64,000 bases of DNA, taken from contig JASEFU010000001.1 of the NCBI GenBank assembly GCA_030018455.1, positions 61,545-125,544 on the forward strand, written 5' to 3'. Below, in pieces: positions 6,603 to 55,548 of this stretch (positions within the stretch are counted from its first letter, which is position 1; every line of letters begins with the position of its first letter). Both the position numbers and the translations under genes were made by a program. Under the pieces are notes generated by a model. It saw nothing but the letters and a program-made list of their open reading frames with translations. It searched no databases and was not told the origin of the DNA. The stretch comes from Dehalococcoidia bacterium. GTDB taxonomy: Bacteria; Chloroflexota; Dehalococcoidia; DSTF01; JALHUB01.

Positions 6603-7697
6603 TCACTGTGCCGCCTGTCCCGCTTTCAATTGCTCGCGCGCCACTTTTTCGACAACCGTGAGCGCCTGCTCAATGTCCTCGCGGTCGACACCGTAGTGGG
6701 TGACCATCCGCACGCGGTCGGGCCCGACCGGCAACGCCAAGACTCCTCGCTCCGAAAGCGCCGTGAGAAAATCCCGCATCTCCCACCGCTCGTCGATCGA
6801 GAAGATCACGATGTTTGTAGGCGCGCGGGCGGGATCGATCGAAATGCCTTCAATAGACGAAAGCCCTTCGGCCAGCGCGCGTGCGTTCTCGTGGTCCTCC
6901 GCCAGCCGGTCGACCATCTTTTCAAGCGCGACGATGCCGGCCGCGCCCAGGATGCCGACCTGACGCATGGCGCCGCCGACCCATCGCCGCGACTGCCGCG
7001 CCCGCACGATGAACTCGCCACTGCCGCAGAGGACGGAGCCCACCGGCGCCGATAGCCCTTTCGACAAGCAGAACATCACCGAGTCCGCTTCTCTCGCCAG
7101 CTCGGCGGCAGGCACACCGAGCGCGACGGCGGCGTTGAATATGCGGGCTCCATCCAGATGCAGGGGGACGCCACGCTCGTGCGCCACCTCCGCCACCCGG
7201 GCCGTGTACTCGGCGCTCAAGGGGACGCCGCCGCAGCGCATGTGTGTGTTCTCCAGGCAAACGAGGGTAATGGGCGGGCCCTGGCTCTCCCACAGGACCT
7301 TGTCAAGCTCCGCGACGTCGATGCGCCCGTCCTCGTCGTTCGGCAGCTCACGCATATCGACGCCGACGAGGTGGCTTATCCCCTCGCCTTCGTAGTAGTG
7401 GATGTGGGCCTCGCTCCCGACAATTATGCGATCGTCGGCCTCGCAATGCGTCAGCACGGCCACGAGGTTGCCCATCGTCCCGCTGGCGACGAAAAGAGCG
7501 TCTTCTTTGCCCAGCTTTTCGGCGGCGATGCTCTCCAACCGCTTTATCGTCGGGTCCTCATGGTGGACGTCATCACCGACTTCCGCCCTGTACATCGCTT
7601 CGCGCATCTCTTGAGTGGGGAGCGTCACCGTGTCGCTGCGAAGGTCGATCGTCTTCACAGTTGCCTCCTCGGGCTTGCGCAACGTCTCATCGCCCAC
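6603..7697 (-). CDS. ltaE: low-specificity L-threonine aldolase (PLP-dependent)
   Basis: IDLRSDTVTLPT motif near the N-terminus, fold-type I PLP enzyme length (364 aa), and FCLSKGLSAPVGSV (PLP-lysine region). Confidence 0.8.
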   Translation of the reverse strand: MGDETLRKPEEATVKTIDLRSDTVTLPTQEMREAMYRAEVGDDVHHEDPTIKRLESIAAEKLGKEDALFVASGTMGNLVAVLTHCEADDRIIVGSEAHIHYYEGEGISHLVGVDMRELPNDEDGRIDVAELDKVLWESQGPPITLVCLENTHMRCGGVPLSAEYTARVAEVAHERGVPLHLDGARIFNAAVALGVPAAELAREADSVMFCLSKGLSAPVGSVLCGSGEFIVRARQSRRWVGGAMRQVGILGAAGIVALEKMVDRLAEDHENARALAEGLSSIEGISIDPARAPTNIVIFSIDERWEMRDFLTALSERGVLALPVGPDRVRMVTHYGVDREDIEQALTVVEKVAREQLKAGQAAQ

Positions 7698-8096: not shown

Positions 8097-8744
8097 TCAC
8101 ACCTTCTTCCGACACAGGTACCAGTCTGTGCAGTCGTAGCCCTCGGTGAGCCGTTCCTCCGCGCCTTCCTGCGTCAGCGGCGGCGGGACGATCACGGGGT
8201 CGCCGGGGCGCCAGTTGGCCGGCGTCGCCACGTTGTGCTCGTCCGTCGTTTGCAGAGCATCGATCAGTCGCACGATCTCGTCCATGTTCCGCCCCGCGCT
8301 CAGCGGGTAATACAGCATCGCCCGTACTATCTGGTTAGGGTCGATGATGAAAACGCAGCGCACGGCCTCGGTGTTGCTCTGATCGGGGTGGATCATGCCG
8401 TAGGCGTTTGCCACCACTTTGTTCAGATCGGCGATGATGGGGTACTGGATTTTCACGCCGGTCTTCTCCTCAATGTTGCGCAACCAGGCAATATGCGAAA
8501 AGACGCTGTCGATGCTGAGCCCGAGCAGGTCGACGCCGCGCTTCTGCAGCTCGTCGTATATCTCGGCGAAAGCGATGAACTCGGTTGTGCATACGGGCGT
8601 GAAATCGGCGGGGTGTGAGAAAAGGACAAGCCAACGGCCGCGAAAATCGTCAAGAGTGAGGGTTCCCTGCGTGGTCTGCGCTACGAAGTCGGGTGCGGGG
8701 CCGCCGAGCCGCGGCAGGCCGATTGTCTCACCCACCTCTACCAT
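8097..8744 (-). CDS. peroxiredoxin (1-Cys / Prx6-type thiol peroxidase)
   Basis: PAPDFVAQTTQG…WLVLFSHPADFTPVCTTE (peroxidatic Cys in the PxDFTPVCTTE motif). Start moved to the internal Met (MVEVGETIG) because the longer ORF (to 8813) would overlap tRNA-Gln. Confidence 0.85.
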   Translation of the reverse strand: MVEVGETIGLPRLGGPAPDFVAQTTQGTLTLDDFRGRWLVLFSHPADFTPVCTTEFIAFAEIYDELQKRGVDLLGLSIDSVFSHIAWLRNIEEKTGVKIQYPIIADLNKVVANAYGMIHPDQSNTEAVRCVFIIDPNQIVRAMLYYPLSAGRNMDEIVRLIDALQTTDEHNVATPANWRPGDPVIVPPPLTQEGAEERLTEGYDCTDWYLCRKKV

Positions 8745-39712: not shown

Positions 39713-40576
39713 GTGGAAATCCGCAAAGGCGTCATTCTCTGCGCCGGTCACGGCACCAGGCTCCTTCCCGCCAGCAAGGCCCAGCCGAAGGAGACCTTTC
39801 CCCTCGTCGACCGGCCAATCATCCACTACGTCGTGCAGGAGGCGCTCGATTCCGGCCTCGAACAGATAATCATGGTCACTTCTGCCGCCAAACGCGCCCT
39901 TGAAGACTACTTCGACCGCGCGCCCGCCCTCGAAAAGGCGCTGGAGGAAAAGGGCGACGCCGAACGGCTGCGCGCCGTCGTCGACGCGGCGGAGATGGCG
40001 GACCTAGTCTTCCTGCGGCAGAAGGAACAGAAGGGCATCGGGCATGCGGTCTCGCTCACTGAACAGATCATCTGCGACGAGCCCTTCGTCCTCTTCTTCC
40101 CCGACGACGTCATCCTGGCCAGGACCCCGGTGACCCGCCAGCTTATCGACGTTTACGAGCGCTACGGCGGCCCTGTGCTCGCCGTGCAGCGCGTGCCCGA
40201 GGCCGAGGTGGAAAGCTACGGCGTGATCGACGGCGAACGCGCGGGCGAACGCGTTTTCCGCGTGCGCGGCCTCATCGAGAAGCCGAAGGCAGGCGAGGCG
40301 CCGTCCAATCTGGGGATAGTGGGACGCTACGTGTTGACGCCGCACATCTTCGGCGCGCTGAGGCGCACGTCTCCCGGCATTGGCGGCGAGCTGCAGATCA
40401 CGGACGCCATCGCCAACATGCTGGCGCAGCAGCCCGTGTTCGCCTGCGAGTTCGAGGGAAAACGCTTCGACACCGGTCGGCCGCTGGGACTCCTCCAGGC
40501 GTCCATCGAAATCGGACTGCTGCACCCCGAAATCGGCCCGCAACTCCGGCAGTACCTGCGCGATCTGAAGCCATGA
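39713..40576 (+). CDS. galU: UTP--glucose-1-phosphate uridylyltransferase
   Basis: RKGVILCAGHGTRLLPASKAQPKETFPLVDRPIIHYVVQEA… (G-x-G-T-R-x-L-P nucleotidyltransferase motif), …EQKGIGHAV…, …FVLFFPDDVI… 287 aa. Confidence 0.85.
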   Translation: MEIRKGVILCAGHGTRLLPASKAQPKETFPLVDRPIIHYVVQEALDSGLEQIIMVTSAAKRALEDYFDRAPALEKALEEKGDAERLRAVVDAAEMADLVFLRQKEQKGIGHAVSLTEQIICDEPFVLFFPDDVILARTPVTRQLIDVYERYGGPVLAVQRVPEAEVESYGVIDGERAGERVFRVRGLIEKPKAGEAPSNLGIVGRYVLTPHIFGALRRTSPGIGGELQITDAIANMLAQQPVFACEFEGKRFDTGRPLGLLQASIEIGLLHPEIGPQLRQYLRDLKP

Positions 40577-40604
40577 CCGCGCGCTTCACGAAAGGTTCGA
40601 CACC

Positions 40605-41981
40605 ATGAGAGTCCTCTCCCTGGGCTTTGCCCTGCCGAACCCCAGCATCGATAACTACAGCTTCGCCAGCGCGCCCTCTTTCTTCGACTACGACGCCCTT
40701 GTCGTCGACCCCGCCGCTCTCTCCCGGCTGATCGAGGAGATAGCGGACCAGGCCGCGGAGCATGCGAGCAACGCCGGCGAGCCGCTGGTCAACGGCGCTA
40801 CCAGCCCTGTCGCCGTTGGCCTCGCGGACATGCTGCGACGCCGTCAGACGGAGACGGTGCGCCTGCTCTCTAAGGGCGGCGCTATCGTCTGCTTCGCCTA
40901 CCCGGATGTCTACCATCACCGCGTCGTCGGCTTCACCGGCTGCGACCGCTACTACTGGCTGCCCGCTCCCCCGGGGCTGCAGTACCGGGAGCCGCACCTG
41001 CTGCCGGGCGATGGTACCAGCGTCATCCCGACCGATCACGAGCACCCGTTCGCCGCCTACATCGACGCGTTCCGTGACCGCCTCGCCTATCGCGCCTACT
41101 TCAGCGACGCCATCCCCGGCTTCGACGGCTTCGGCCGGGTGTTTGCCCGCAGCGCCGGCGGCGCGGCCGTGGGTGTCGAGCTGCGGGTTGAGGCGGGACG
41201 GATAGTCTTCCTGCCGCCGGTCGCCGAGCCGGGCCGGGGCGCCGAGCGCCACCCGCTGGCAGAGACAATCGTCAATTGCCTGCGGCGCCTGCTCGCCCTC
41301 ACAGCGGAGGAGTCGCCGCCGCGCTGGGTGCGCGACCACACGCTGCCCGGCCTGCCGGAGCTCGAAGCCGAGCGCTCGGCGGCGCAAGAGGCGCTTTCGG
41401 GAGCATACGCGCGACTACAGGAGACCGAAGCGCGATTGAGCGATGTCGAGAAACACCGTCGCCTGCTATGGCAGGAAGGCAAGTTCGGGCTGGAGACCGC
41501 CGTTCGCGACGCCTTCGCGCTGCTCGGCTTCCAGGTGACCAAGGACATCGACGAACAGGGAGCCGTCTACATGGCGGGCGAGAAGCTCCTGCTCGAAGTC
41601 GAAGGCTCGCCGGAGGCCGTGGGAATGGAGCCCCACTACCGCCTGCGACGCCGTCTGGAGCAGGCCATAGCGGAGACCGGACGCCCGCAGAAAGGGCTCA
41701 TCGTAGTGAACGGCTTCCGACTCGCCCCGCCGGGGGAGCGCCCGCCGCAGTACTCCGACGCCCTGCGGGTCGCCGCCGAAAGCATGCACTACTGCCTCCT
41801 CGCTTCAACCGACCTGTTCGCCGTTGTGAAAAGGCATCTGGAGGGTGACGCGTCGGCGGCGAAGTCGTTGCGCGAACTGCTCCTCTTGTGCGAGGGGGCG
41901 CTATCGCTGGAGGACGGGAGTGAGGTCAAGCCCGGTGAAACGACGGAGCCGGAAGCCCCGCAACCCAAACATGAACGTTAA
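40605..41981 (+). CDS. uncharacterised 458-aa protein (N-terminal alpha/beta domain, central coiled coil, C-terminal alpha/beta domain)
   Basis: No signal peptide or TM. Coiled-coil segment …LPELEAERSAAQEALSGAYARLQETEARLSDVEKHRRL… The C-terminal alternating pattern (…EKLLLEVEGSPE…KGLIVVNGFRL…YCLLASTDLF…) is nuclease-fold-like, but this is inference only. 28 nt after galU, 12 nt before the next gene. Confidence 0.5.
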   Translation: MRVLSLGFALPNPSIDNYSFASAPSFFDYDALVVDPAALSRLIEEIADQAAEHASNAGEPLVNGATSPVAVGLADMLRRRQTETVRLLSKGGAIVCFAYPDVYHHRVVGFTGCDRYYWLPAPPGLQYREPHLLPGDGTSVIPTDHEHPFAAYIDAFRDRLAYRAYFSDAIPGFDGFGRVFARSAGGAAVGVELRVEAGRIVFLPPVAEPGRGAERHPLAETIVNCLRRLLALTAEESPPRWVRDHTLPGLPELEAERSAAQEALSGAYARLQETEARLSDVEKHRRLLWQEGKFGLETAVRDAFALLGFQVTKDIDEQGAVYMAGEKLLLEVEGSPEAVGMEPHYRLRRRLEQAIAETGRPQKGLIVVNGFRLAPPGERPPQYSDALRVAAESMHYCLLASTDLFAVVKRHLEGDASAAKSLRELLLLCEGALSLEDGSEVKPGETTEPEAPQPKHER

Positions 41982-42810: not shown

Positions 42811-43488
42811 ATGACGGCCCCCAGAGCATGGCTGGCATGGAGCAGCGGGAAAGATAGCGCCTGGGCTTTGCGCGTCGCGCGGCAGGCCGGTGAGCTCGAT
42901 GTGGTCGCCCTTCTCACCACTGTGACGGACGACCACCGGCGCGTCTCCATGCACGGCGTGCGCGAAACGCTGCTCCACGCTCAAGCCGGGGCCCTGGGGC
43001 TGCCTCTCCACGTTGTCCGCATCCCCGCGCCTTGCCCGCAAGAAGTGTACGACGACGCCATGCGCCACGTCCTGCGGGATGCGCGGGAGGAAGGGGTCAC
43101 GCACGTCGTCTTCGGCGACCTGTTCCTGGCCGATGTCCGCGCCCACCGCGAGGAGCGCTTGGCAGAGGTGGGGATGGCCGCCTGCTTCCCTCTCTGGCAG
43201 CGGGACAGCGCAGCGCTCGCGCGCGAGATCATCGCCGATGGTACGAAGAGCGTAGTCGTCTGCGTCGACCCGGCGAAGGCGCCGCGGGAGATCGCGGGCA
43301 GGGCCTACGACGAGGAACTCCTCGCCTCGCTGCCCGCATCCGTCGACCCGTGCGGCGAGAACGGCGAATTCCACACCTTTGTGTGGGACTGCCCATCGTT
43401 CGCGCGGCCTGTCGCCGTCCGCGTCGGCGAAACGGTGGAGCGCGACGGCTTCCTGTTCACGGATTTGCTGCCCGCGCCACAGCGCTGA
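42811..43488 (+). CDS. PP-loop ATP pyrophosphatase, Dph6/MJ0570-like (DUF71) family
   Basis: …AWLAWSSGKDSAWAL… (SGGxDS-type PP-loop) and …CGENGEFHTFVWDCP… (the EnGEYHT signature of diphthine-ammonia-ligase-like N-type ATP PPases). 225 aa, 3 nt after the SDR gene. Confidence 0.7.
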   Translation: MTAPRAWLAWSSGKDSAWALRVARQAGELDVVALLTTVTDDHRRVSMHGVRETLLHAQAGALGLPLHVVRIPAPCPQEVYDDAMRHVLRDAREEGVTHVVFGDLFLADVRAHREERLAEVGMAACFPLWQRDSAALAREIIADGTKSVVVCVDPAKAPREIAGRAYDEELLASLPASVDPCGENGEFHTFVWDCPSFARPVAVRVGETVERDGFLFTDLLPAPQR

Positions 43489-44764
43489 CTTCCCGGCCGT
43501 TGAACGGTCGCTGGTCGCCCGGGCGCTCCTTGACAAGGGCGAGGAACAGCAGCGCCGCCAGGAACCTCCCCCCGCTCGATACGATGAACACCAGCGGCAG
43601 GTTCCACAACTCGCCGATAAGGCCGCCGAGGAGCGGCCCCGCAAACGCTGAGCTGAACACCATCGACTGGTAGACCGCCGAGTAGAATGCGCGCTTCCCG
43701 CTCGGAGAGATGTAGAGGAGCAGGCTGAAAGCGCCGAGGTTGAAGCCTGCCCACAGCGCTCCCCCTACGCCGTTGATGAAGATCACGTGCCAGGGGGCGG
43801 TCGCTGCGACCCACGCCAGGGGAAGGAACGGGATCGCCAGGCCGGTTACGGCCATCAGCCACCGCGACCCGCGCTCGTCGAGGAGACGGCCCGCTATCGG
43901 CTGTCCCGCCAGCGCCGAGACGGAGTTGATCGCCGAAAGCCCTCCTACCCAAGCGGCGTTGCCCCCCATGTTCTTGACGAGATGAACGTTGAAAAAGGGG
44001 GCCGCCACATACAGCGCAAGGTTCCAGATGAAGGTGACGGCGCAGAAGGTAACGAAGTTCTTGTCGCTCAGGAGGCCGCCCCTCGTCTGTCCGTCCCCCT
44101 CCCGCTGGCGGATCGTCCGTTCGATGTCCTGGTCCGGTATCCGGGAGTAGAAGGCTGTCGCCAGGAGGCCGGCGACCAGCGCCAGCGCCCAGGCGGACTG
44201 CCATCCTTCGGGGAAACCGACGCGATTGATCATGAGCCCCGCCAGGGGCGCCCCTATCAGCGCGCCCACGCCCATGCCGAAATTGCGCGACGAGAAGAAC
44301 CGCCCCCGCACCGAGAGCGGCACTATGTCGGCGGAGAGCGAAGTCCAGGCGGGAATGCCCAGGTTGACAAAGAAGATGCGCGCCGCCCCCAACCCCATTA
44401 TCGCGTAAACGACCTCTTTCCCCTGGGAGAAGAAGGGCAGCACCGCCAGTCCTAGCAGCATCATTCGGGCCATGCCCCCTCCCGTGAGGAGGACGAGCAG
44501 CTTGCGACGCCCCCAGCGCTCCGCCAGCCGCGCGCCGGGAAGCAGCGCCACGGCGCCCGACAGGCTCACCAGCGCCGCAAGGTAGCCGATCTGGGAGTCG
44601 GAGGCGCCGAATGCGAGAGCGTAGACCGCGAGGTACTGGACGACGATCCACTCGCTGAACCAGGCAAAGAAGCCGTCGAACCAGAAGGCGCGCATCCCCC
44701 TTTCCTGCGCGGCCGTCGGCTCGTCCGGCGAAGGACGCGGAAGATCGGCTGTGAGGTCATTCAT
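43457..44764 (-). CDS. MFS transporter (12 TM)
   Basis: 12 hydrophobic segments, MFS motif A-like …LAERWGRRKLL… 435 aa. Convergent overlap with the preceding gene. Confidence 0.8.
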   Translation of the reverse strand: MNDLTADLPRPSPDEPTAAQERGMRAFWFDGFFAWFSEWIVVQYLAVYALAFGASDSQIGYLAALVSLSGAVALLPGARLAERWGRRKLLVLLTGGGMARMMLLGLAVLPFFSQGKEVVYAIMGLGAARIFFVNLGIPAWTSLSADIVPLSVRGRFFSSRNFGMGVGALIGAPLAGLMINRVGFPEGWQSAWALALVAGLLATAFYSRIPDQDIERTIRQREGDGQTRGGLLSDKNFVTFCAVTFIWNLALYVAAPFFNVHLVKNMGGNAAWVGGLSAINSVSALAGQPIAGRLLDERGSRWLMAVTGLAIPFLPLAWVAATAPWHVIFINGVGGALWAGFNLGAFSLLLYISPSGKRAFYSAVYQSMVFSSAFAGPLLGGLIGELWNLPLVFIVSSGGRFLAALLFLALVKERPGDQRPFNGREVSAVARAANP

Positions 44765-44866
44765 CGGGGCGGCTCAGCGTGATCGTAGGGTAGCGTCGGG
44801 GCTGGAAGCAACATCCGAGGAGGAGCGAACCGGAAGCCGGCGCGACGAATGAGGAGGAGGACCGCC

Positions 44867-47179
44867 TCACTCGGCCATGCGGATGTGCGGCAGCCACTCA
44901 AGCCAGCGCGGCAAGTACCAGTTCCAGTCGCCCAGAAGTTTCATCGTCGCCGGCAGCAATATCGAGCGGATAATCGTGGCGTCGATGAAGATCGCCAGCG
45001 CCAGCCCGAAGCCGAACTGCTTGATGCCGAGAAAGCGCGTGAAAGCGAAGATCATCGCCACCGCAATCATGATAGCGGCCGCGCTCGTGATCGTACCTGC
45101 CGTCGCGCGTACTCCCAACGAAACAGCGCGATCGCTGCCCGCGCCTCGCTCCCAGGCTTCCTTGATCCGCGCCAGGATGAACATGTGGTAGTCCATCGAC
45201 AGGCCGAAGAGGATGGCGAACAGGAACAGCGGCAGCCAGGACTCGATGATGCCCGTGGCCTCGAATCCGAGCGGGCCCTCCAGCAACCAGCCTTCTTGAA
45301 AAACGAGCACCAGTATGCCGTATGCCGCGCCCACCGAGAGGAGGTTCAGGATTATGGCCTTGACGGCGATGACAAACGAACGGAAGGTCAGCAACAGCAC
45401 GAAAAACGCCAGCCCGAGAACGAACGCGAAGACAATCGGCGTGCGGCCGTCTATATGACTCCGGAAGTCGATGTTGGCGGCCGTCGCTCCCGTGACGCTC
45501 ACCCTCGCAGACGACCCCTCGAACGCCGCGGGGATCAGCTCGTTGCGCAAACGTCTCACGTCGTCGAGTGCCCGCTCCTCGCCCGTGTCGGCGTTGAGTG
45601 GTATGCGGATCACCTCCGTGTCGCCGGCGCCGTTGACATCCGTCTGTATGGGAGCGCCGAAAGGAGCGTCCGGCCGTTGCGCCGAGGCAGTCTCCGCCTG
45701 GACACGCTCGACCAACTGCCGCACGCCCGACTGGATATCCTCAGCGTAAACGTTGCGGCTCTCTCCTGCGTCGACCACGACCAGCGCCGGAGAGGTGAGC
45801 CCGAGGGTGAAGTTCTCCTCCAGGGCAAGCAGCGCGCGCTTCGCTTCAACGTCATCGGAGAGGGCTTTGGCGCCGTTGAAGCCGAGATTAAAGGTCACTA
45901 TCGGCGCAGCAGCCGCCAGCAGGAGGCCGGTGGCAAGAATGGCGAGAATCGCCGGTCGGGCGAGAACGAAATCGGTGATGTGTCCCCACACACCGCCACG
46001 TTCCTCGCCGCGCACGAGGAAGGGAAGGGTAAAGCGGTCGATGTACCCCGCGAGCGCGCCGAGCAACGTCGGCAGCAAGGTCACGGAAATGATGATCGCG
46101 ATCATGACGACAATGACGGCCGCGAGGCCAAGACTGGTGAACGTCGCCTCGCCCACAAGGAACATCCCGCACACAGCCAGCACCACCGTCGCCCCCGCGA
46201 AGACGACCGCCTTCCCCGACGTCCCCGCAGCGATGCGGAGCGCCTCCTCGTCGCTGCGCCCCGCGCGCCGCTCATTGCGAAAGCGGGTGACCACGAACAG
46301 CGTGTAGTCGATGCCCGTGGCGAGCCCCATGAGCAACACCATCTCCGTGTAGATGGGACTCAGGGTGTAGGACTGGCTAATCACGCTGAGAACCCCGAAG
46401 GCGGTAAGGACGGCGGCGATAGCGAGAGTGAGAGGAATGAGGGCCGCAACCGGTGCCCGAAACACCAGCAGCAGTATGACCAACGTGACGGTCAGGTTGA
46501 GCATGAGCGCCCGACCCAGGTCTTCCTCGATGATCTTGTCCTGCTCCGCGAACGTCGAAGCCTCTCCGCCGCTCAGGATCGTGAAACCGGGCGACTCCTC
46601 GCTCACCTGCGCCACGGTCCGGACCACGGGGTCGATGTTCTCTTTCGCGGTCAGCACGTCGCCCTGCAGGCTCACAAGGGCAAGGCTGACGTCGCCGCTG
46701 TCGCTCGGCGCCACAAGTGGCGACGCCTCACGGGGAAGGCCGGTATCGTAATGAGTGAAGCTCCCTGAGACGATGCGCTTGTACTCGGAGACTCTCGTTC
46801 CGCCGACGTCTCGAATCTCCTCCGTTCGCAGCTCGCTGAGCCGCGTCATCAGGTCCTCGACCGTCCGGCGATACGCGGGGTCGTCCACCTGCGTCGCCGA
46901 GGAGAAGACGACGACCTCCTGCGGCGGGACTTGCCGCTCGCCGAAGCGTTCCTCGTACAGCCTCAGGGCGTCGCCGGCCTCGCCGATCCCCTCCTGCTCC
47001 CACGACGTCTTCGTCGGCATCACAATCGACGCGCCCATGGCAACGACGATCACGAGCAACCACCCCAACCCAACCAGGAGCCGGTGGTGACTGCTCCAGA
47101 CCGCCATCCGGGCCGTAAACGATGTCTCTCTGTGCCGAGCTGAGTCCAACTTGTTCTCCCGGCTATCGACCGATCTCAC
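44867..47179 (-). CDS. MMPL-family (RND-superfamily) membrane transporter
   Basis: 770 aa, two 6-TM bundles each preceded by a large periplasmic domain, …FVVTRFRNERRAG… and duplicated MMPL-domain signatures. GTG start overlaps the stop of the upstream binding-protein gene (TAGTG). Confidence 0.85.
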   Translation of the reverse strand: MRSVDSRENKLDSARHRETSFTARMAVWSSHHRLLVGLGWLLVIVVAMGASIVMPTKTSWEQEGIGEAGDALRLYEERFGERQVPPQEVVVFSSATQVDDPAYRRTVEDLMTRLSELRTEEIRDVGGTRVSEYKRIVSGSFTHYDTGLPREASPLVAPSDSGDVSLALVSLQGDVLTAKENIDPVVRTVAQVSEESPGFTILSGGEASTFAEQDKIIEEDLGRALMLNLTVTLVILLLVFRAPVAALIPLTLAIAAVLTAFGVLSVISQSYTLSPIYTEMVLLMGLATGIDYTLFVVTRFRNERRAGRSDEEALRIAAGTSGKAVVFAGATVVLAVCGMFLVGEATFTSLGLAAVIVVMIAIIISVTLLPTLLGALAGYIDRFTLPFLVRGEERGGVWGHITDFVLARPAILAILATGLLLAAAAPIVTFNLGFNGAKALSDDVEAKRALLALEENFTLGLTSPALVVVDAGESRNVYAEDIQSGVRQLVERVQAETASAQRPDAPFGAPIQTDVNGAGDTEVIRIPLNADTGEERALDDVRRLRNELIPAAFEGSSARVSVTGATAANIDFRSHIDGRTPIVFAFVLGLAFFVLLLTFRSFVIAVKAIILNLLSVGAAYGILVLVFQEGWLLEGPLGFEATGIIESWLPLFLFAILFGLSMDYHMFILARIKEAWERGAGSDRAVSLGVRATAGTITSAAAIMIAVAMIFAFTRFLGIKQFGFGLALAIFIDATIIRSILLPATMKLLGDWNWYLPRWLEWLPHIRMAE

Positions 47180-48219
47180 TACGGAAAGAGATTAACAAGC
47201 CTCCCGCCCTGTACCTGGCACGCGGCCACCCCGAAGTCGAGCGCCTGGGCCGTAAGGTCAGTCTCGCTGGTAGAGCGGTCTCCGTGCTCGTCGAAGGTGA
47301 TGCGGCCCGAAAGGCCGTCCTCCAGCTCGCCGGCGCTAACGGCGTCGCGGAGGGCGGCGCGGTCTATCACCAGGCTTCCGTCTTCTCTCTCCTCTGCAAC
47401 GCGGGCGACGGCATCGAGCAGCAGCGTCGCCGCGTCCGCGTACTGCGCCACGAAAGCGCTAGCGTCCGGCCGGTCGCCGTGCACACGCTCGAAGTCCGCC
47501 AGGAAGTCCTCGGGCAGGGTCAGCGGGCAACCCACGAAGTAGACGCCCTCCGCAGATTCGCGCCCGACCGGCTCCACAAACGTCTGCACGGAAGCGGCGG
47601 CATCGCCGGCGCCGAACTCTCCCGCGTACCCGGCGTCGCGGAGCTGACGGTAGAGCAGGGAAACGTCCGGGTTGAAGCTGGCAAAGCCGACGAAGTCGGG
47701 CTCTGCCTCCATGATGCGCTGCACAACCAGGCCGAAGTCGACGGTGCCGAGTGGCGCGGTGTCGCGGCTGACGGCGATCCCCTGCTCCCGCATCACCGCC
47801 TCCGCCGCATTGATCAAGTCGATGCCGTAGGTCTCGCCGTCGTCGATCAGGTAGGCTGTCGTTGCGCCCAGCTCGGTGGCGACGAAGAGACCTCCTACGA
47901 GCCCCTGGAAGGAGTTGCGGTAGGCGGTGCGGAAAAAGAAGCCGCCGGGCGGCTGCGTCGACGCAAGGTCAGAGTCGGTCGCAGAGCCCGAGATGGCGAC
48001 GACGCCCGCTCCCTCGTACAGAGGGAGGGCCGCGCGCGCGCCCGTGCTGCAATCGGGCCCGATCACGCCGATGAGTCCCGGCGTGTCTATGAGACGCCGC
48101 GCCGCCTGCATCGTGATCTCCTCCTCGGTGCACCCGTCGTCCTCCATCCGCAGCTCTATCTCGTGGCCCTTGATGCGCTCCCCGTTCGCCTCTTTCCAGC
48201 GGACCACACTCGTGATCAC
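47179..48219 (-). CDS. LivJ/LivK-type (type-I periplasmic-binding-protein fold) branched-chain-amino-acid-binding lipoprotein. N-terminus continues in frame to about 48460 without a canonical start.
   Basis: …LIGVIGPDCSTGARAALPLYEGAGVVAISGSATDSDL…FFFRTAYRNSF… (Peripla_BP_6 pattern). In-frame upstream translation gives …LFVAILSVALTACGSAAPVASGAPPFERDPEEIVIPAGQPIVIGVSVPLTGS… (lipoprotein signal), but there is no ATG/GTG/TTG after the preceding stop. Confidence 0.7.
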   Translation of the reverse strand: MITSVVRWKEANGERIKGHEIELRMEDDGCTEEEITMQAARRLIDTPGLIGVIGPDCSTGARAALPLYEGAGVVAISGSATDSDLASTQPPGGFFFRTAYRNSFQGLVGGLFVATELGATTAYLIDDGETYGIDLINAAEAVMREQGIAVSRDTAPLGTVDFGLVVQRIMEAEPDFVGFASFNPDVSLLYRQLRDAGYAGEFGAGDAAASVQTFVEPVGRESAEGVYFVGCPLTLPEDFLADFERVHGDRPDASAFVAQYADAATLLLDAVARVAEEREDGSLVIDRAALRDAVSAGELEDGLSGRITFDEHGDRSTSETDLTAQALDFGVAACQVQGGRLVNLFP

Positions 48220-48578
48220 GGCGTCGCCGTCTTCCGTGCCCTCCGGCTGCTGCGAGCCCGTGAGGGGGACGGAAACGCCGATAACGATGGGTTGTCCCGC
48301 GGGAATGACGATCTCTTCGGGGTCGCGCTCGAAGGGGGGCGCGCCGCTGGCGACGGGCGCTGCGCTGCCGCACGCCGTCAGGGCGACGGACAGTATCGCA
48401 ACGAAAAGAACAGGCGCCGCCGCGCTCCAGCGCGGGAGACGGGCGGCACGTGCAGAGCAGACGCCGGGCCGGTCAGGCAGTACCGGGATGCTTCACCCTC
48501 CAAAGTTTGAGGACGGCGCAGGACTGGTCCTGGCCGTCCTGTTCAGAATACACCGTGCCGTTACGGCGGTCTACCCGT

Positions 48579-49337
48579 CTACCGGAACCGCGCCTGCCAG
48601 ATGTCCGGGCATTCCTGGCCCGTCAGGTAGAAGACCTGCGCCTCGCTGTCCCAGGCGATGCCGTTCGGCGTGCCCCCCGGACAGACTTCCGGCGGGAGCT
48701 CGAAGCGCGCCACGTCCGAAGGGTCGCGCTCCTTGATACGGTAGACGTAGCGCGTCTGCCACTGGTTCGCCCAGATATACGTGCCGTCGAACTCCAGCTC
48801 GTTGAGCCGCGCCACGGGCTGCCCTTCGTAGGAAATCGTGACCTCTCGCTCCACCTCAAACGTCTCGGGGTCGCGATAGTAGAGTGTGGCGCTGCCGTTC
48901 GAGTTGACGAGGTGGCTGTCCGTCGCCGTCAGACCCCAACCTTCGCCCTTGTAGCGCGCGAAAAGCCGGTACGGCTCGTCGGCATTGCGGTCGAACAGAT
49001 AGGCCTCACCCTCTTTGTACGTCAGCAGGTACGTCCTGCCGAACGCGCGCGCCAGCCCCTCGCCGAAGAAGCCCTGCGGGTTGGGCACCGCCCACAGCAC
49101 TTCCCCCGTCTCGGTGTCCAGCCCGCGCACCTGCGACTTGCCCTCGAGGCCGGTGCTTTCCCAGAGAACGCCTTCGCTGATCAGCAGCCCCTCCGTCCAG
49201 GCGTTTCCCTCGTGAGGCAGCGACTCCAGGAGCTCGACGCGTCCCTGCGGCGTCCATTCTCCCGACGGCGTCGACTCGCCGCAGGAGACCACCAGCGCGA
49301 CGACGAAGGCGATGGCGAGGAGACGGACTGCTTGCAT
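48579..49337 (-). CDS. glutaminyl-peptide cyclotransferase (bacterial/plant beta-propeller type) lipoprotein
   Basis: Signal with lipobox (…LAIAFVVALVVSCG), …EGLLISEGVLWESTGLEGKSQVRGLD…, …GWGLTATDSHLVNSNGSATLYY…, …NGIAWDSEAQVFYLTGQECPDIW…, all characteristic of plant-type glutaminyl cyclase. Confidence 0.8.
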   Translation of the reverse strand: MQAVRLLAIAFVVALVVSCGESTPSGEWTPQGRVELLESLPHEGNAWTEGLLISEGVLWESTGLEGKSQVRGLDTETGEVLWAVPNPQGFFGEGLARAFGRTYLLTYKEGEAYLFDRNADEPYRLFARYKGEGWGLTATDSHLVNSNGSATLYYRDPETFEVEREVTISYEGQPVARLNELEFDGTYIWANQWQTRYVYRIKERDPSDVARFELPPEVCPGGTPNGIAWDSEAQVFYLTGQECPDIWQARFR

Positions 49338-49405: not shown

Positions 49406-51241
<1,836 letters not shown>

Positions 51242-51302
51242 TGACTCGATGGTAGCATAGAAGAAGACAGCTCTCAATTTGGACACTCGGAAAGGGGGAC
51301 TC

Positions 51303-51860
51303 GTGGAGCGCGCAAGCGAAGTATTGACGGCGGAGCACCGCGGCATCGAGCGGATGCTGCGGATTCTCGAAACGGCGGCGGCGAAGGCCGAGCGGGGCGA
51401 GAAGGTGTCGGTGGAAGTCTTCTCCGACGCCATCGACTTCATCAGGGGCTTCGCCGACGGCTGCCACCACGCGAAGGAGGAGAAGACGCTATTCCCCCTG
51501 CTGGAGCAGCGCGGGATACCGCGGCAGGGGCCTATCGGAGTGATGCTGTCGGAGCACGAAGCAGGACGGCGCTACGTGGCGCAGATAGCGGCGTCGCTGG
51601 AGGGCTACGCCCGCGGCGATGCGGCGGCCACGCGCACGCTCACCGAAAACGCGCGTGAGTACGTGGCGCTTCTCCGCCAGCACATCACGAAGGAAGACAA
51701 CGTCCTCTTCCCCATGAGCGACCGCGTCCTCACCGAAGACGACCAGAAGGGCCTGGTGGAGCGGTTCGAGGAGATCGAGCGGGAAGAGATCGGCGAGGGC
51801 GTCCACGAGCGGTACCACGGCATGCTCGACCGCCTGGAGCGCGAGATGGGTATCGTCTAG
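51303..51860 (+). CDS. hemerythrin HHE cation-binding-domain protein
   Basis: GTG start after AAGGGGGA. …[12 protein letters not shown]…, …[12 protein letters not shown]…, …MLSEHEAG…, …[11 protein letters not shown]… (His/Glu di-iron ligand pattern). Confidence 0.7.
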
Positions 51861-52383: not shown

Positions 52384-52542
52384 GGCACACGGCGGCGGCG
52401 ACTGCTCAGGGCCAGCGGGTGCACGTACTTCCTCCGCGGCGCACGCAACCTGTACTACGATGCCCCGGGCGTCACCACAGCCGAGGCAGAAGAGATCAGC
52501 AACGAAACGAACGCTCCCCTGACTTACACCGCCGAGCCACTG

Positions 52543-53295
52543 GTGCAGGACCCGACCGATTGGGACGGCGACGGGGTCGCCGACGGCGCCGACAACTGCC
52601 CTTATGTCTACAACCCGGCCCAGACGAACACCGACGCCGAAACCATTGACAACGGCCCGGTCGTGGTCGGCGACGATGTCACGGCGCCTTACGGCGACGC
52701 TCTGGGCGACGCGTGCGACGACGATGACGACAACGATTGGCTTCTTGACAGCGGTGAGGTAGCTGCGGGCACGGACCCGCTCGATCAGGACACTGACGGC
52801 GACCGCGTGCTCGACGGCGCGGAAGTCCTCCTCGGCTCCGACCCGCTTGATCCGGGCAGCCGCCCGTCGTGCACGGGCATCGTCGATGCCGACAAGGACT
52901 GCCTGCCGGCGGACGTGGAAGCGCTGTTCGGCTCGTCCGACGTCGCCAGGGACAGCGACGCCGACGGCATCACCGACAGCGTGGAGGTGAAGGGCTGGGG
53001 CACGTCTCCCGTCGCGGGGGACAGCGACGGCGACGCGTGCGACGACGACAAAGAGATCGCCGACGTGAACGGCGATGCGGTGGCGAACAGTCTCGACTAC
53101 GTGCGGGTGGCCCAGCGCGTCTTCGGAGTGCAGGACGACGACCCGGACGACGGCAACCCCGTGCCTGACCCCGACATGCAGGTAAGCCCTGCCTTCGACG
53201 TCAACAAAGACGGGGTGATGAGTTCACTCGACTCGACCCTCGTGGGTCTAAACTCCAACCTCGTGGAAAACACGGGAAAATGCAACTGCAACTAG
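52543..53295 (+). CDS. thrombospondin type-3 repeat and dockerin-like Ca-binding repeat protein with no signal peptide
   Basis: DWDGDGVADGADNCPYVYNPAQTNTD (TSP3 DxDxDGxxDxxDNCP motif) repeated in variants. C-terminal pair DVNGDAVANSLDYVRVAQRVF / DVNKDGVMSSLDSTLVGL fits the dockerin DxNxDGxxNSxD-helix repeat. First canonical start is GTG 52543. The frame is open back to the GNAT stop at 52381-52383. Confidence 0.6.
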   Translation: MQDPTDWDGDGVADGADNCPYVYNPAQTNTDAETIDNGPVVVGDDVTAPYGDALGDACDDDDDNDWLLDSGEVAAGTDPLDQDTDGDRVLDGAEVLLGSDPLDPGSRPSCTGIVDADKDCLPADVEALFGSSDVARDSDADGITDSVEVKGWGTSPVAGDSDGDACDDDKEIADVNGDAVANSLDYVRVAQRVFGVQDDDPDDGNPVPDPDMQVSPAFDVNKDGVMSSLDSTLVGLNSNLVENTGKCNCN

Positions 53296-53367: not shown

Positions 53368-54387
53368 CTAGATGCGGTGGCAGGCTACCCAGTGGTCGCG
53401 CGAAAGCTCGCGCCACACCGGCACGTGCTCGCGGCACTCCGTCGTCACCAGCGGGCAGCGCGTGTGGAAAACGCAGCCCGACGGCGGGAACAGGGGGCTG
53501 GGCACGTCGCCGCTGAGGATGATGCGCTCCCGCTTCGCCTCCACGACCGGGTCCGGTATGGGCACCGCCGAGAGCAGCGCCTTCGTGTAGGGGTGAAGCG
53601 GGTTCTCGTACAGCTCCACCCTGTCCGATAGCTCCATCAGCTTGCCCAGGTACATCACCGCCACGCGGTCGCTTATGTGCCGCACTACCGACAGGTCGTG
53701 GGCGATGAACAGATAAGTGAGGTCGAACCTCTCCTGCAGGTCCTCCAGCAGGTTGATGATCTGCGCCTGAATCGACACGTCGAGTGCCGAGACCGGCTCA
53801 TCGCAGACGATGAAGTCGGGCTCCACCGCCAGCGCGCGCGCCACGCCGATGCGCTGTCGCTGCCCGCCGCTGAACTCGTGAGGGTAGCGGCTGGCGTAAT
53901 ACGGGTTCAGACCGACGATCTGCATCAGCTCCTGCACACGCTCGCGCCGCTGCTTCCCCTTGAACAGGTTGTGGATCACAAGCGGCTCGCCGATGATGCT
54001 CCCCACGCTCATGCGCGGGTTGAGCGAGGCGTAGGGGTCCTGAAAGATCATCTGCATGCGGCGGCGGAAGCCGCGCAGCTCGCCGCCCTTGACCTTCGTG
54101 AGGTCTCTGCCGCCGAAGAGTACTTCGCCGCTTGTCGGCCGGTACAGTTGCAGGATGGCGCGGCCGGTCGTCGACTTGCCGCAGCCGCTCTCACCCACCA
54201 GGCCGAGGGTCTCCCCCTTGCGAATGAAGAAGGAAATGCCGTCGACGGCCTTGACGTCCGCTATCTTGCGCTGAAAGATGATCCCCGAAGTCACGGGAAA
54301 ATACATCTTCAGGTCGGTCACGCTGATAAGGACGTTGTCTCCGCCGAGCTGTCTCTCGGCGTCGGCGATGCGTTGTTCGGTAGTCAT
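53368..54387 (-). CDS. oppF: oligopeptide/dipeptide ABC transporter ATP-binding protein (OppF-like)
   Basis: …[13 protein letters not shown]… (Walker A), …[15 protein letters not shown]… (signature), …[11 protein letters not shown]… (Walker B), and a C-terminal oligopeptide-ABC tail with Cys cluster. ATG overlaps the oppD stop (ATGA). Confidence 0.85.
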
Positions 54388-55376
54388 GCGCTCACGGCCT
54401 TTCCAACGGTTGGCATCACCCAGCAGGCGGCGTAATGCTTCTCGCCGCCGAGCATCAGCGGCGGCTCCTCGACCTTGCACCGCTCTATCCGGTACTCGCA
54501 CCGCGGATAGAAGCTGCAGCCTTCGGGCATGTGTATGAGATCGGGCGGGAAGCCCTCGATAGGTTCAAGCTTGTCCTTCCGCACCTGGTCGAGCCGGGGC
54601 ACCGACTTCAGCAGACCGATCGTGTACGGGTGCCGGGGGTTGCCGTACACTTCGCGCGAAGTCGACGACTCGACGATCTTGCCCGCGTACATGACGTTCA
54701 CCCGCTGAGCGTACCTCGCTATGACGCCCAGGTTGTGCGTGATGATGATGACGGCTGTCCCGAACTCACGGCTCAGGCGCGCCATGATCTCCAGGATTTG
54801 CGCTTGAATCGTGACGTCGAGAGCGGTTGTCGGCTCATCGGCCAGCAGGAGCTTGGGGTTGCAGGAGAGGGCCATCGCGATCATGACGCGCTGTCGCATC
54901 CCTCCTGAGAACTGGTGCGGGTAGTCTTTGATGCGGGCGGCGGCGGAGGGGATACCGACCATCTCCAGCAGCTCGACCGCCCGCCTGACGGCGCTCGAGC
55001 GGTCCATCCGCATGTGCAGCTCGAGCGACTCCGTGAGCTGGCGCCCGATGGTAAGGACGGGATTGAGGGAGGTCATCGGCTCCTGGAAGATCATGGCGAT
55101 TCGGTTGCCCCGGATGTGCCTGATCTCGTCCTCGTCGACCTTGAGGAGGTTCTCGCCTTCGAACCAGATTTCGCCGTCGACGATCTTGCCGGGAGGATTG
55201 GGGATGAGGCGCAGGAGCGAGAGGGCGCTGACGCTCTTGCCGCAGCCGCTCTCGCCCACGAGACCTATCGTCTCGCCCTCCTCCACATCGTAGTCGATCC
55301 CGTCAACCGCCTTCACCACGCCGTCGTCAGTATAAAAGTAAGTGCGAAGGTTCTTCACCTCTAACAGGGTTCCCAT
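54384..55376 (-). CDS. oppD: oligopeptide/dipeptide ABC transporter ATP-binding protein (OppD-like)
   Basis: …[13 protein letters not shown]…, …[15 protein letters not shown]…, …[11 protein letters not shown]…; start at the internal ATG 55376 ([10 protein letters not shown]…). Confidence 0.85.
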
Positions 55377-55463
55377 ATATCGTCCCCGTTCAGCTACTTG
55401 TATATGTACCGCCGCAACCCGTGTTGCGGTAAGCGCCATGATCAGGACGGCAGGCGAGCGGAC

Positions 55464-55548
55464 TGGTGGGGAAGAGGGGACTCGAACCCCTACGCCTTGC
55501 GGCACATGATCCTAAATCATGCTCGTCTACCAGTTCCGACACTTCCCC
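55464..55548 (-). tRNA. tRNA-Leu (anticodon UAG), long variable arm
   Basis: rc = GGGGAAGTGTCGGAACTGGTAGACGAGCATGATTTAGGATCATGTGCCGCAAGGCGTAGGGGTTCGAGTCCCCTCTTCCCCACCA. 85 nt, class II tRNA, encoded CCA. Confidence 0.85.

Follow-up and report, generated by a model that had tools for sequence, protein, structure and literature searches.

A LivJ-type solute-binding lipoprotein gene adjoins an MmpL3-like transporter gene in uncultured Chloroflexota and some Actinomycetota

Type I solute-binding proteins (SBPs) are routinely annotated as parts of ABC importers, and the locus described here raises the question of what such a protein does beside a transporter of another kind. In a 64-kb stretch of a Dehalococcoidia metagenome-assembled genome (MAG), which we call the window (G+C ~66%), the gene for a lipoprotein of the LivJ/LivK fold (hereafter the SBP) is followed directly by the gene for an MMPL transporter of the RND superfamily. 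The first-pass annotation of this sequence read a minus-strand series running from a glutaminyl cyclase through the SBP and the MMPL protein to an MFS transporter; the open reading frames (ORFs) and their Pfam matches bear out this order (Table 1), and all four products have identical matches at NCBI (cyclase, MDI6856790.1; SBP, MDI6856789.1; MMPL, MDI6856788.1; MFS, MDI6856787.1). It also held that the locus is not a Liv importer, and this stands: tblastn searches with LivH, LivM, LivG, and LivF proteins from two other loci found no LivH/LivM-type permease in the whole window, where the only ABC ATPases are two of Opp type (53368-55511). The SBP and MMPL genes are tightly linked, lying 29 or -1 nucleotides (nt) apart.

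Conservation of the pairing in related genomes had been set beforehand as a check. Scanning one genome per GTDB species with an alignment of the SBP family gave 38 loci (SBP 46%-64% identical), mostly from Dehalococcoidia or other Chloroflexota, with some in bins labeled Gaiellales, Miltoncostaea, and Acidimicrobiia and one in Gemmatimonadota. Two of the 38 contigs end inside the SBP gene. In all of the 36 assessable loci, an MMPL orthologue (40%-67% identity) directly adjoins the SBP gene, co-directional and downstream in 27 and divergent and upstream in nine. Four more metagenome loci also show the pair, one found from the SBP and three starting from MMPL homologues. Leaving the window aside, an adjacent MMPL gene is present in 40 out of 40 non-redundant loci with an SBP at least 46% identical (30 co-directional and 10 divergent); including it, the total is 41 (31 and 10). 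The divergent form is seen in three separate SBP sequence clusters, and adjacency has therefore survived repeated rearrangement. Carriers span two phyla (Chloroflexota and some Actinomycetota bins). At two loci, L038 (10001-11880) and L030 (5851-7053), the SBP and/or the MMPL protein align only partly although the contig continues; these may be decaying copies, frameshifts, or masked sequence.

The linkage ends at a sharp boundary. Whereas SBPs at 46% identity or above are linked, one at 41% (L049) is an orphan without MMPL, and one at 37% adjoins a LivG-like ATPase, again without MMPL; those at 22%-29% lie in ordinary ABC operons. No LivH/M permease was found in any MMPL-linked locus (tblastn with two LivHMGF sets). 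The boundary therefore marks out the MMPL-linked SBPs as a discrete subfamily descended from ABC-coupled amino-acid binders, a whole subfamily that has left the ABC context and become locked to an RND transporter.

Flanking genes are heterogeneous. A Pfam census taking in two genes to either side of the pair counted 124 families in 113 proteins; the commonest, DHA2-type MFS, occurs six times, always in the clade closest to the window. Homology clustering of the flanking ORFs found no third conserved partner or regulator: the only clusters exceeding nine loci are the SBP, the MMPL protein, and ORFs antisense to them. Among the 113 flanking genes there is no MmpS or TtfA homologue near the pair, and no small accessory gene recurs. 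Judged from these genome comparisons, the SBP and the MMPL protein very probably form a functional two-gene module.

Rfam searches at gathering thresholds covered the sequence ahead of the pair in the window and in 15 loci and detected no riboswitch. At L017, two c-di-AMP riboswitches (6680-6810 and 8286-8428) closely follow the MMPL gene and are placed ahead of the two genes after it rather than ahead of the pair.

The SBP scores 143.2 bits on PF13458 (cut-off, 31.7 bits) and also matches ANF_receptor (1e-12). Its AlphaFold2 model (pLDDT 92.4) has the two-lobed fold of type I periplasmic binding proteins (PBPs), and the best Foldseek matches are LivK 3td9 (E 1e-27, TMt 0.84), LivJ 4gnr, and 4n0q. 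The closest solved relative by sequence is LivJ of Escherichia coli; the NCBIfam model PRK15404 gives 86 bits against a cut-off of 477 bits. In LivJ, we take Ser79, Thr102, Tyr150, Tyr202, and Glu226 to bind the alpha-amino and alpha-carboxylate groups of the ligand, and Tyr18 and Leu77 to contact its side chain. From the alignment (Table 1), the SBP is predicted to keep the amino-acid anchoring residues of LivJ, apart from the changes at Tyr202 and Glu226. The subfamily also has features of its own that the non-linked relatives have lost: W64, E82, and a second Cys pair (C287/C390).

Relatives of the SBP at 55%-68% identity number in the hundreds; all bear a lipobox, and almost all are on Dehalococcoidia-type metagenome contigs. 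Public pipelines annotate the protein as the SBP of an ABC transporter. LivJ-type domains of the lineage also occur in unusual tandem or fused architectures (P0254, P0289, P0322, P0344, P0367, and P0368), with SBP_bac_3, SBP_bac_5, SBP_bac_8, WD40 propellers, and a Ser/Thr kinase as the fusion partners of SBP relatives.

The start of the SBP gene is unusual. The frame is open from a stop at 48495-48493 and encodes a signal peptide and the lipobox LTAC (APVLFVAILSVALTAC), which, as read from the sequence, has the form expected of a bacterial lipoprotein; the lipobox Cys is kept in 24 out of 25 family members. There is no ATG, GTG, or TTG in this frame before codon 91 (the first is at 48219). 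The ~90% identical relative P0391 is a protein of 436 amino acids (aa), and in the alignment its ATG falls exactly on ATC 48489 of the window; because of this relative we set the frame and start position there, giving a 436-codon precursor counting the stop codon. The start codon in the window is accordingly read as ATC, by an ATG-to-ATC change. A strong GGAGGG lies 6 nt upstream of this codon in the window and is absent from the ~90% identical relative. Either AUC serves here as a rare initiation codon, offset by a strong ribosome-binding site, or the allele has lost its start. The NCBI product (MDI6856789.1, 367 aa) begins at an internal ATC in the mature domain and has no signal peptide. 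A second assembly (Logan L051) is identical over the part it covers, 48451 and below; the ATC codon lies outside.

We also asked whether a frameshift or indel in the T-run at 48407-48404 could account for the missing start, in which case GTG 48449 of another frame would provide a textbook RRR signal peptide. We reject this idea because the second assembly has an identical run and the 436-aa relative uses the SBP frame from the position of the ATC onward.

The MMPL protein scores 296.4 bits on PF03176, its single domain; it has no signaling domain. Its sequence matches MmpL3 in the PDB (2e-54), and its AlphaFold2 model has TM-scores of 0.82-0.85 to MmpL3 (7n6b/6n40), compared with 0.75-0.78 to MmpL4/5; NPC1 and Dispatched are also among the structural matches. 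Hydropathy and the model agree on 12 transmembrane helices and two porter domains. Two Asp-Tyr pairs, GIDY (D291-Y292) and SMDY (D663-Y664, in the numbering of the 770-aa ORF that starts at GTG), are invariant among aligned homologues (23 in one alignment; at least 95% of 117 in another). They align with the Asp-Tyr proton-relay pairs in transmembrane helices 4 and 10 of MmpL3, which we take to be D256-Y257 and D645-Y646. Sequence and model together indicate an MmpL3-like protein in which both proton-relay pairs are kept. We considered and rejected its identity as an MmpL3 orthologue (the trehalose monomycolate exporter), because the score on NCBIfam NF052608 is 229.8 bits against a cut-off of 1400 bits and the protein ends right after the twelfth transmembrane helix, at 760 aa, without a C-terminal cytoplasmic domain.

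Translational coupling of the two genes had been proposed from a TAGTG in which the SBP stop codon overlaps a GTG start of the MMPL gene. The string (ccgTAGTGaga) is present and the tight linkage holds. Coupling through the overlap is weakened because GTG 47179, which has no ribosome-binding site, is probably not the MMPL start, and we do not regard it as established. The more likely start is TTG 47149, since it lies 6 nt after a GGGAG Shine-Dalgarno sequence, begins NCBI's 760-aa product, and fits the start positions of homologues: in co-directional loci, the first possible MMPL start is mostly 6-77 nt past the SBP stop, usually after a GGAG-like motif. A third candidate, ATG 47107, picked by another gene caller, would cut off a conserved motif (S-F/L-x-A-R-I/M-A-x-W-S). 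The close relative L052 keeps TAGTG, GGGAG, and TTG alike. Coupling of this kind is no trait of the family.

Most likely, the SBP is the extracytoplasmic ligand-handling partner of the MMPL protein and acts independently of an ABC transporter. As to how, we tentatively favor, at a probability of roughly 0.45, a hand-off in which the SBP takes over the substrate in MMPL-driven export. As a lipoprotein, the SBP would be tethered to the cytoplasmic membrane on its outer face; a single membrane is generally ascribed to Chloroflexota. Driven by the proton-motive force via the Asp-Tyr relay, the MMPL protein would take a small amphiphilic metabolite from the membrane or cytoplasm and move it outward. 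The SBP would dock on the two porter domains and accept the substrate, presumably recognizing an amino-acid-like head group (amino plus carboxylate) through the anchors inherited from LivJ, and transfer between the two proteins would be outward. We favor the hand-off because a lipoprotein of a single-membrane host faces the same side as the MMPL porter domains; because MmpL-type RND pumps are considered unidirectional exporters (PMC6751184); and because extracytoplasmic binding partners recur among MMPL/RND proteins: MmpL3/11 has LpqN (PMC7458404), and BstA of the MMPL family has BstB, a PBP-fold protein (PMC10942540).

Several observations weigh against the hand-off. All carriers of the pair are uncultured MAGs, and neither the 150 representatives nor the 120 MMPL homologues inspected include an SBP-MMPL fusion. 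The SBP and MMPL distance matrices are correlated (r = 0.55; Mantel, 0 of 2000), but this is uncontrolled and expected from co-inheritance alone, so that co-divergence argues only weakly for a module. A closed cleft of LivJ type with amino-acid anchors, as predicted here, suits a small polar ligand, and the known substrates of MMPL proteins are lipids, siderophores, and polyketides. The SBP positions equivalent to the two side-chain contacts of LivJ vary within the subfamily. The SBP ligand and the MMPL substrate may be different molecules, which would favor a sensory role.

Such a role is the main rival to the hand-off, and we think it rather doubtful. The SBP would bind an extracellular amino-acid-like signal, and its liganded or unliganded form would dock on the MMPL porter domains and switch the export of a different substrate, a lipid or a metabolite, much as LivBP-like domains regulate eukaryotic receptors and bacterial SBPs signal to membrane partners. 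The retained anchoring residues, the amino-acid binders among the closest folds, and the ANF_receptor match are all consistent with this; relatives fused to a Ser/Thr kinase and other non-transport domains suggest that the fold is used for sensing in the lineage, and strict one-to-one adjacency fits a sensor as well as it fits the hand-off. One clade has the pair beside leuA, leuC, ilvB, and ilvD, but this neighborhood is confined to that clade and is probably a single event. Against a sensor stand the architecture of the MMPL protein, with its lone PF03176 domain, and precedent: we know of no RND transporter gated by a binding protein.

It is unlikely that the two proteins are not direct partners at all. 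In this reading, the SBP would be an orphan working for a LivHMGF-type ABC transporter whose genes lie elsewhere, and only its location or regulation would be shared with the MMPL protein. Orphan LivJ-type SBPs do exist, the 41%-identity relative being one, and the ABC label given by public pipelines would agree; the search for Liv genes covered the 64-kb window and the MMPL-linked loci. The strictness of the adjacency makes this reading unlikely, however, because, if the pair were not under selection, one would hardly expect it to persist in every non-redundant locus, across two phyla, in two orientations, and between unrelated flanks. The subfamily is also discrete in its Cys pair, W64, and E82.

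Import is about as improbable. Here the SBP would capture a scarce amino-acid-like nutrient for uptake through the MMPL protein by proton-motive force, an RND counterpart of TRAP and TTT systems; a LivJ-type SBP would have swapped its ABC partner for an MmpL3-like transporter, and a third class would be added to the SBP-dependent secondary transporters. Uptake SBPs are the ancestors of this SBP, which retains their ligand anchors, the MMPL protein replaces the ABC partner one-for-one as SBP identity rises from 37% to 46% and above, and NPC1 and NPC1L1, eukaryotic RND relatives found among the structural matches of the MMPL model, take sterol from the extracytoplasmic side. However, the proton relay does not differ in form from that of exporters, and we know of no transmembrane pathway for a polar solute in MmpL3-like proteins. 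Hand-over of heme by a binding protein to MmpL3/11 has been proposed, as cited in PMC6751184, where the import proposal is contested on the ground that MmpL-type pumps are considered unidirectional exporters.

A four-gene export operon, in which the cyclase would make N-terminal pyroglutamate on a secreted peptide that the SBP, the MMPL protein, and the MFS transporter then handle, is hardly credible: the genes run in one direction, separated by short gaps (68-102 nt), near-identical strains share the arrangement, and a LivJ-type SBP that binds L-pyroglutamate exists (PDB 8wch), but the idea is largely refuted by lack of conservation, as none of the 40 more distant pair-bearing loci has the cyclase or this MFS, and the cyclase gene lies beside the housekeeping lepA in a wider neighborhood of housekeeping genes.

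The first-pass annotation had counted both neighbors in the system. The cyclase has no homologue beside the pair in loci L001-L050 and is found only in the near-identical strains L052 and L053, and the window MFS has no tblastn match in other loci, an orthologue being kept only in near-identical strains; outside these strains, neither gene occurs within 10 kb of the pair. Both are therefore probably incidental to the SBP-MMPL module, and the pyroglutamate-peptide idea is left without comparative support because the cyclase is absent from the other loci. An MFS gene beside an MMPL gene is reminiscent of ActA/ActB in the actinorhodin cluster. In place of the window MFS, seven loci of the clade nearest to the window have a DHA2-type MFS gene in convergent orientation. 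In that clade (L001 3303-7855, L004 363-7277, L007 3550-9200, and L008 5598-9671), the DHA2-type gene is downstream of the pair, and the upstream side of the pair is immediately flanked by a second, paralogous Peripla_BP_6 gene and a gene for a multi-PAS sensor protein of very large size (1003-1794 aa). In the clade of divergent pairs represented by L020 (1140-2780), L023 (2712-6619), L027 (5783-7357), and L046 (1-2946), branched-chain amino acid biosynthesis genes adjoin (leuA, a leuC-like aconitase gene, an ilvB-like gene, and ilvD), a weak hint of a link between the module and branched-chain amino acid metabolism.

The housekeeping genes of the wider window include ksgA, an ispE-like gene, the SRP RNA gene, pheST, infC, and a dinG-like gene. 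Promoter and terminator scans of the sequence gave matches at chance level and are uninformative on operon limits. An ORF on the plus strand at 40569-41981 (458-470 aa) shows good coding statistics but matches no Pfam family; the close relatives L051 and L052 keep it between NTP-transferase and short-chain dehydrogenase genes. Another plus-strand gene (52384-53295) encodes a protein with bacterial thrombospondin type 3 (TSP3) repeats and a dockerin-like domain, and L052 has a 712-aa TSP3 protein at the corresponding place.

Table 1. Features of the SBP-MMPL locus, with window coordinates, and state of LivJ positions in the SBP subfamily
Feature	Position	Strand	Details
LepA (lepA)	49406-51442	-	Directly upstream of cyclase gene
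Glutaminyl cyclase lipoprotein (Glu_cyclase_2)	48579-49337	-	Pfam E 4.5e-58; plausible lipobox VVSC
SBP translation start region	48487-48501	-	GGAGGG 48501-48496; 6-nt spacer including in-frame TGA; then ATC 48489-48487
LivJ/LivK-fold type I solute-binding lipoprotein, SBP (Peripla_BP_6)	47179-48489	-	PF13458 E 2e-41
SBP lipobox L-T-A-C	48370-48381	-	Cys codon 48372-48370; read from sequence
SBP-MMPL junction	47147-47181	-	TAG 47181-47179 overlaps GTG 47179-47177; GGGAG 47160-47156; TTG 47149-47147
MmpL3-like MMPL transporter (RND superfamily)	44867-47149 (47179 at most)	-	PF03176 E 3e-88
MFS transporter, 12 transmembrane helices	43457-44764	-	Pfam MFS_1 E 2e-42; 102 nt downstream of MMPL
LivJ Cys53-Cys78 disulfide equivalent			Invariant in SBP subfamily
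LivJ Ser79, Thr102, Tyr150 equivalents			Invariant in SBP subfamily
LivJ Glu226 equivalent			Invariant Asp in SBP subfamily
LivJ Tyr202 equivalent			Phe in SBP subfamily
LivJ Tyr18, Leu77 (side-chain contacts) equivalents			Variable in SBP subfamily

The pairing points to an unstudied system of binding protein and RND transporter in uncultured Chloroflexota and some Actinomycetota. A type I PBP had been called an atypical partner for an MMPL protein, and our full-text searches agree, finding no paper that describes a LivJ/PBP6-MMPL pairing. If the two proteins interact, the accessory proteins of MMPL/RND transporters would include the classical LivJ fold, a systematic misannotation of the SBP subfamily would be corrected, and the ligand of the soluble SBP would offer a tractable route to the substrate of an otherwise opaque MMPL clade from uncultured Chloroflexota that are abundant in soil and sediment. 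Should the direction be inward, the view that MmpL-type pumps only export would be overturned. The SBP is a soluble, crystallizable handle on the system, which makes it easy to test.

Among known systems, the SBP shares with LivJ/LivK of the LivHMGF importer its fold, the first disulfide, and the anchors Ser, Thr, Tyr, and Glu/Asp. It differs from LivJ in the extra Cys pair and in the Phe at the Tyr202 position, and the locus differs from the importer in that the window and the linked loci lack LivH/M permease and LivG/F ATPase genes. TRAP and TTT systems are similar in concept, an SBP being coupled to an ion-gradient-driven membrane transporter with the genes side by side. Unlike the pair, they have DctQM or TctAB rather than an RND protein and type II SBPs (DctP or Bug) rather than the type I LivJ, and importer activity of the MMPL protein is hypothetical. 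In eukaryotes, the RND-superfamily proteins of the NPC2-NPC1 and Dispatched-Scube2 pairs exchange a hydrophobic ligand with a soluble extracytoplasmic binding protein; the folds of those binding proteins are unrelated to that of the SBP, and the ligands are sterols or lipidated proteins.

The transporter itself is closest to MmpL3, which it resembles in fold, in its 12 transmembrane helices and two porter domains, and in the Asp-Tyr relay pairs. It differs from mycobacterial MmpL3 in the low NCBIfam score and the missing C-terminal cytoplasmic domain described above, and to our knowledge the hosts of the pair lie outside the mycolic-acid-producing actinobacteria. For MmpL3/MmpL11 with LpqN (and TtfA) in mycobacteria, an extracytoplasmic lipoprotein is proposed to take over the substrate (PMC7458404), as we propose for the SBP. 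Unlike the SBP, LpqN lacks a PBP fold and strict adjacency to mmpL3.

The closest precedent is BstA-BstB(-BstC), the sterol transport system of Methylococcus capsulatus (PMC10942540). BstB is PhnD-type (PF12974, type II) and holds sterols in a hydrophobic cavity, whereas the window SBP belongs to PF13458 and is a type I, LivJ-type protein with amino-acid anchors. BstA is HpnN-like, and the window MMPL protein scores 35.7 bits on NF045600, against a cut-off of 1400 bits. The Bst host is a diderm methanotroph and the hosts of the pair are Chloroflexota and Actinomycetota; the flanking-gene census found no BstC-like third conserved component around the pair. BstB binds the transported molecule (PMC10942540), a way of handling that is only proposed for the window SBP. 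The resemblance is one of working principle only: in each case, an MMPL-family (PF03176) RND transporter of the inner membrane goes with a bi-lobed partner of PBP fold, and an ABC transporter is not involved.

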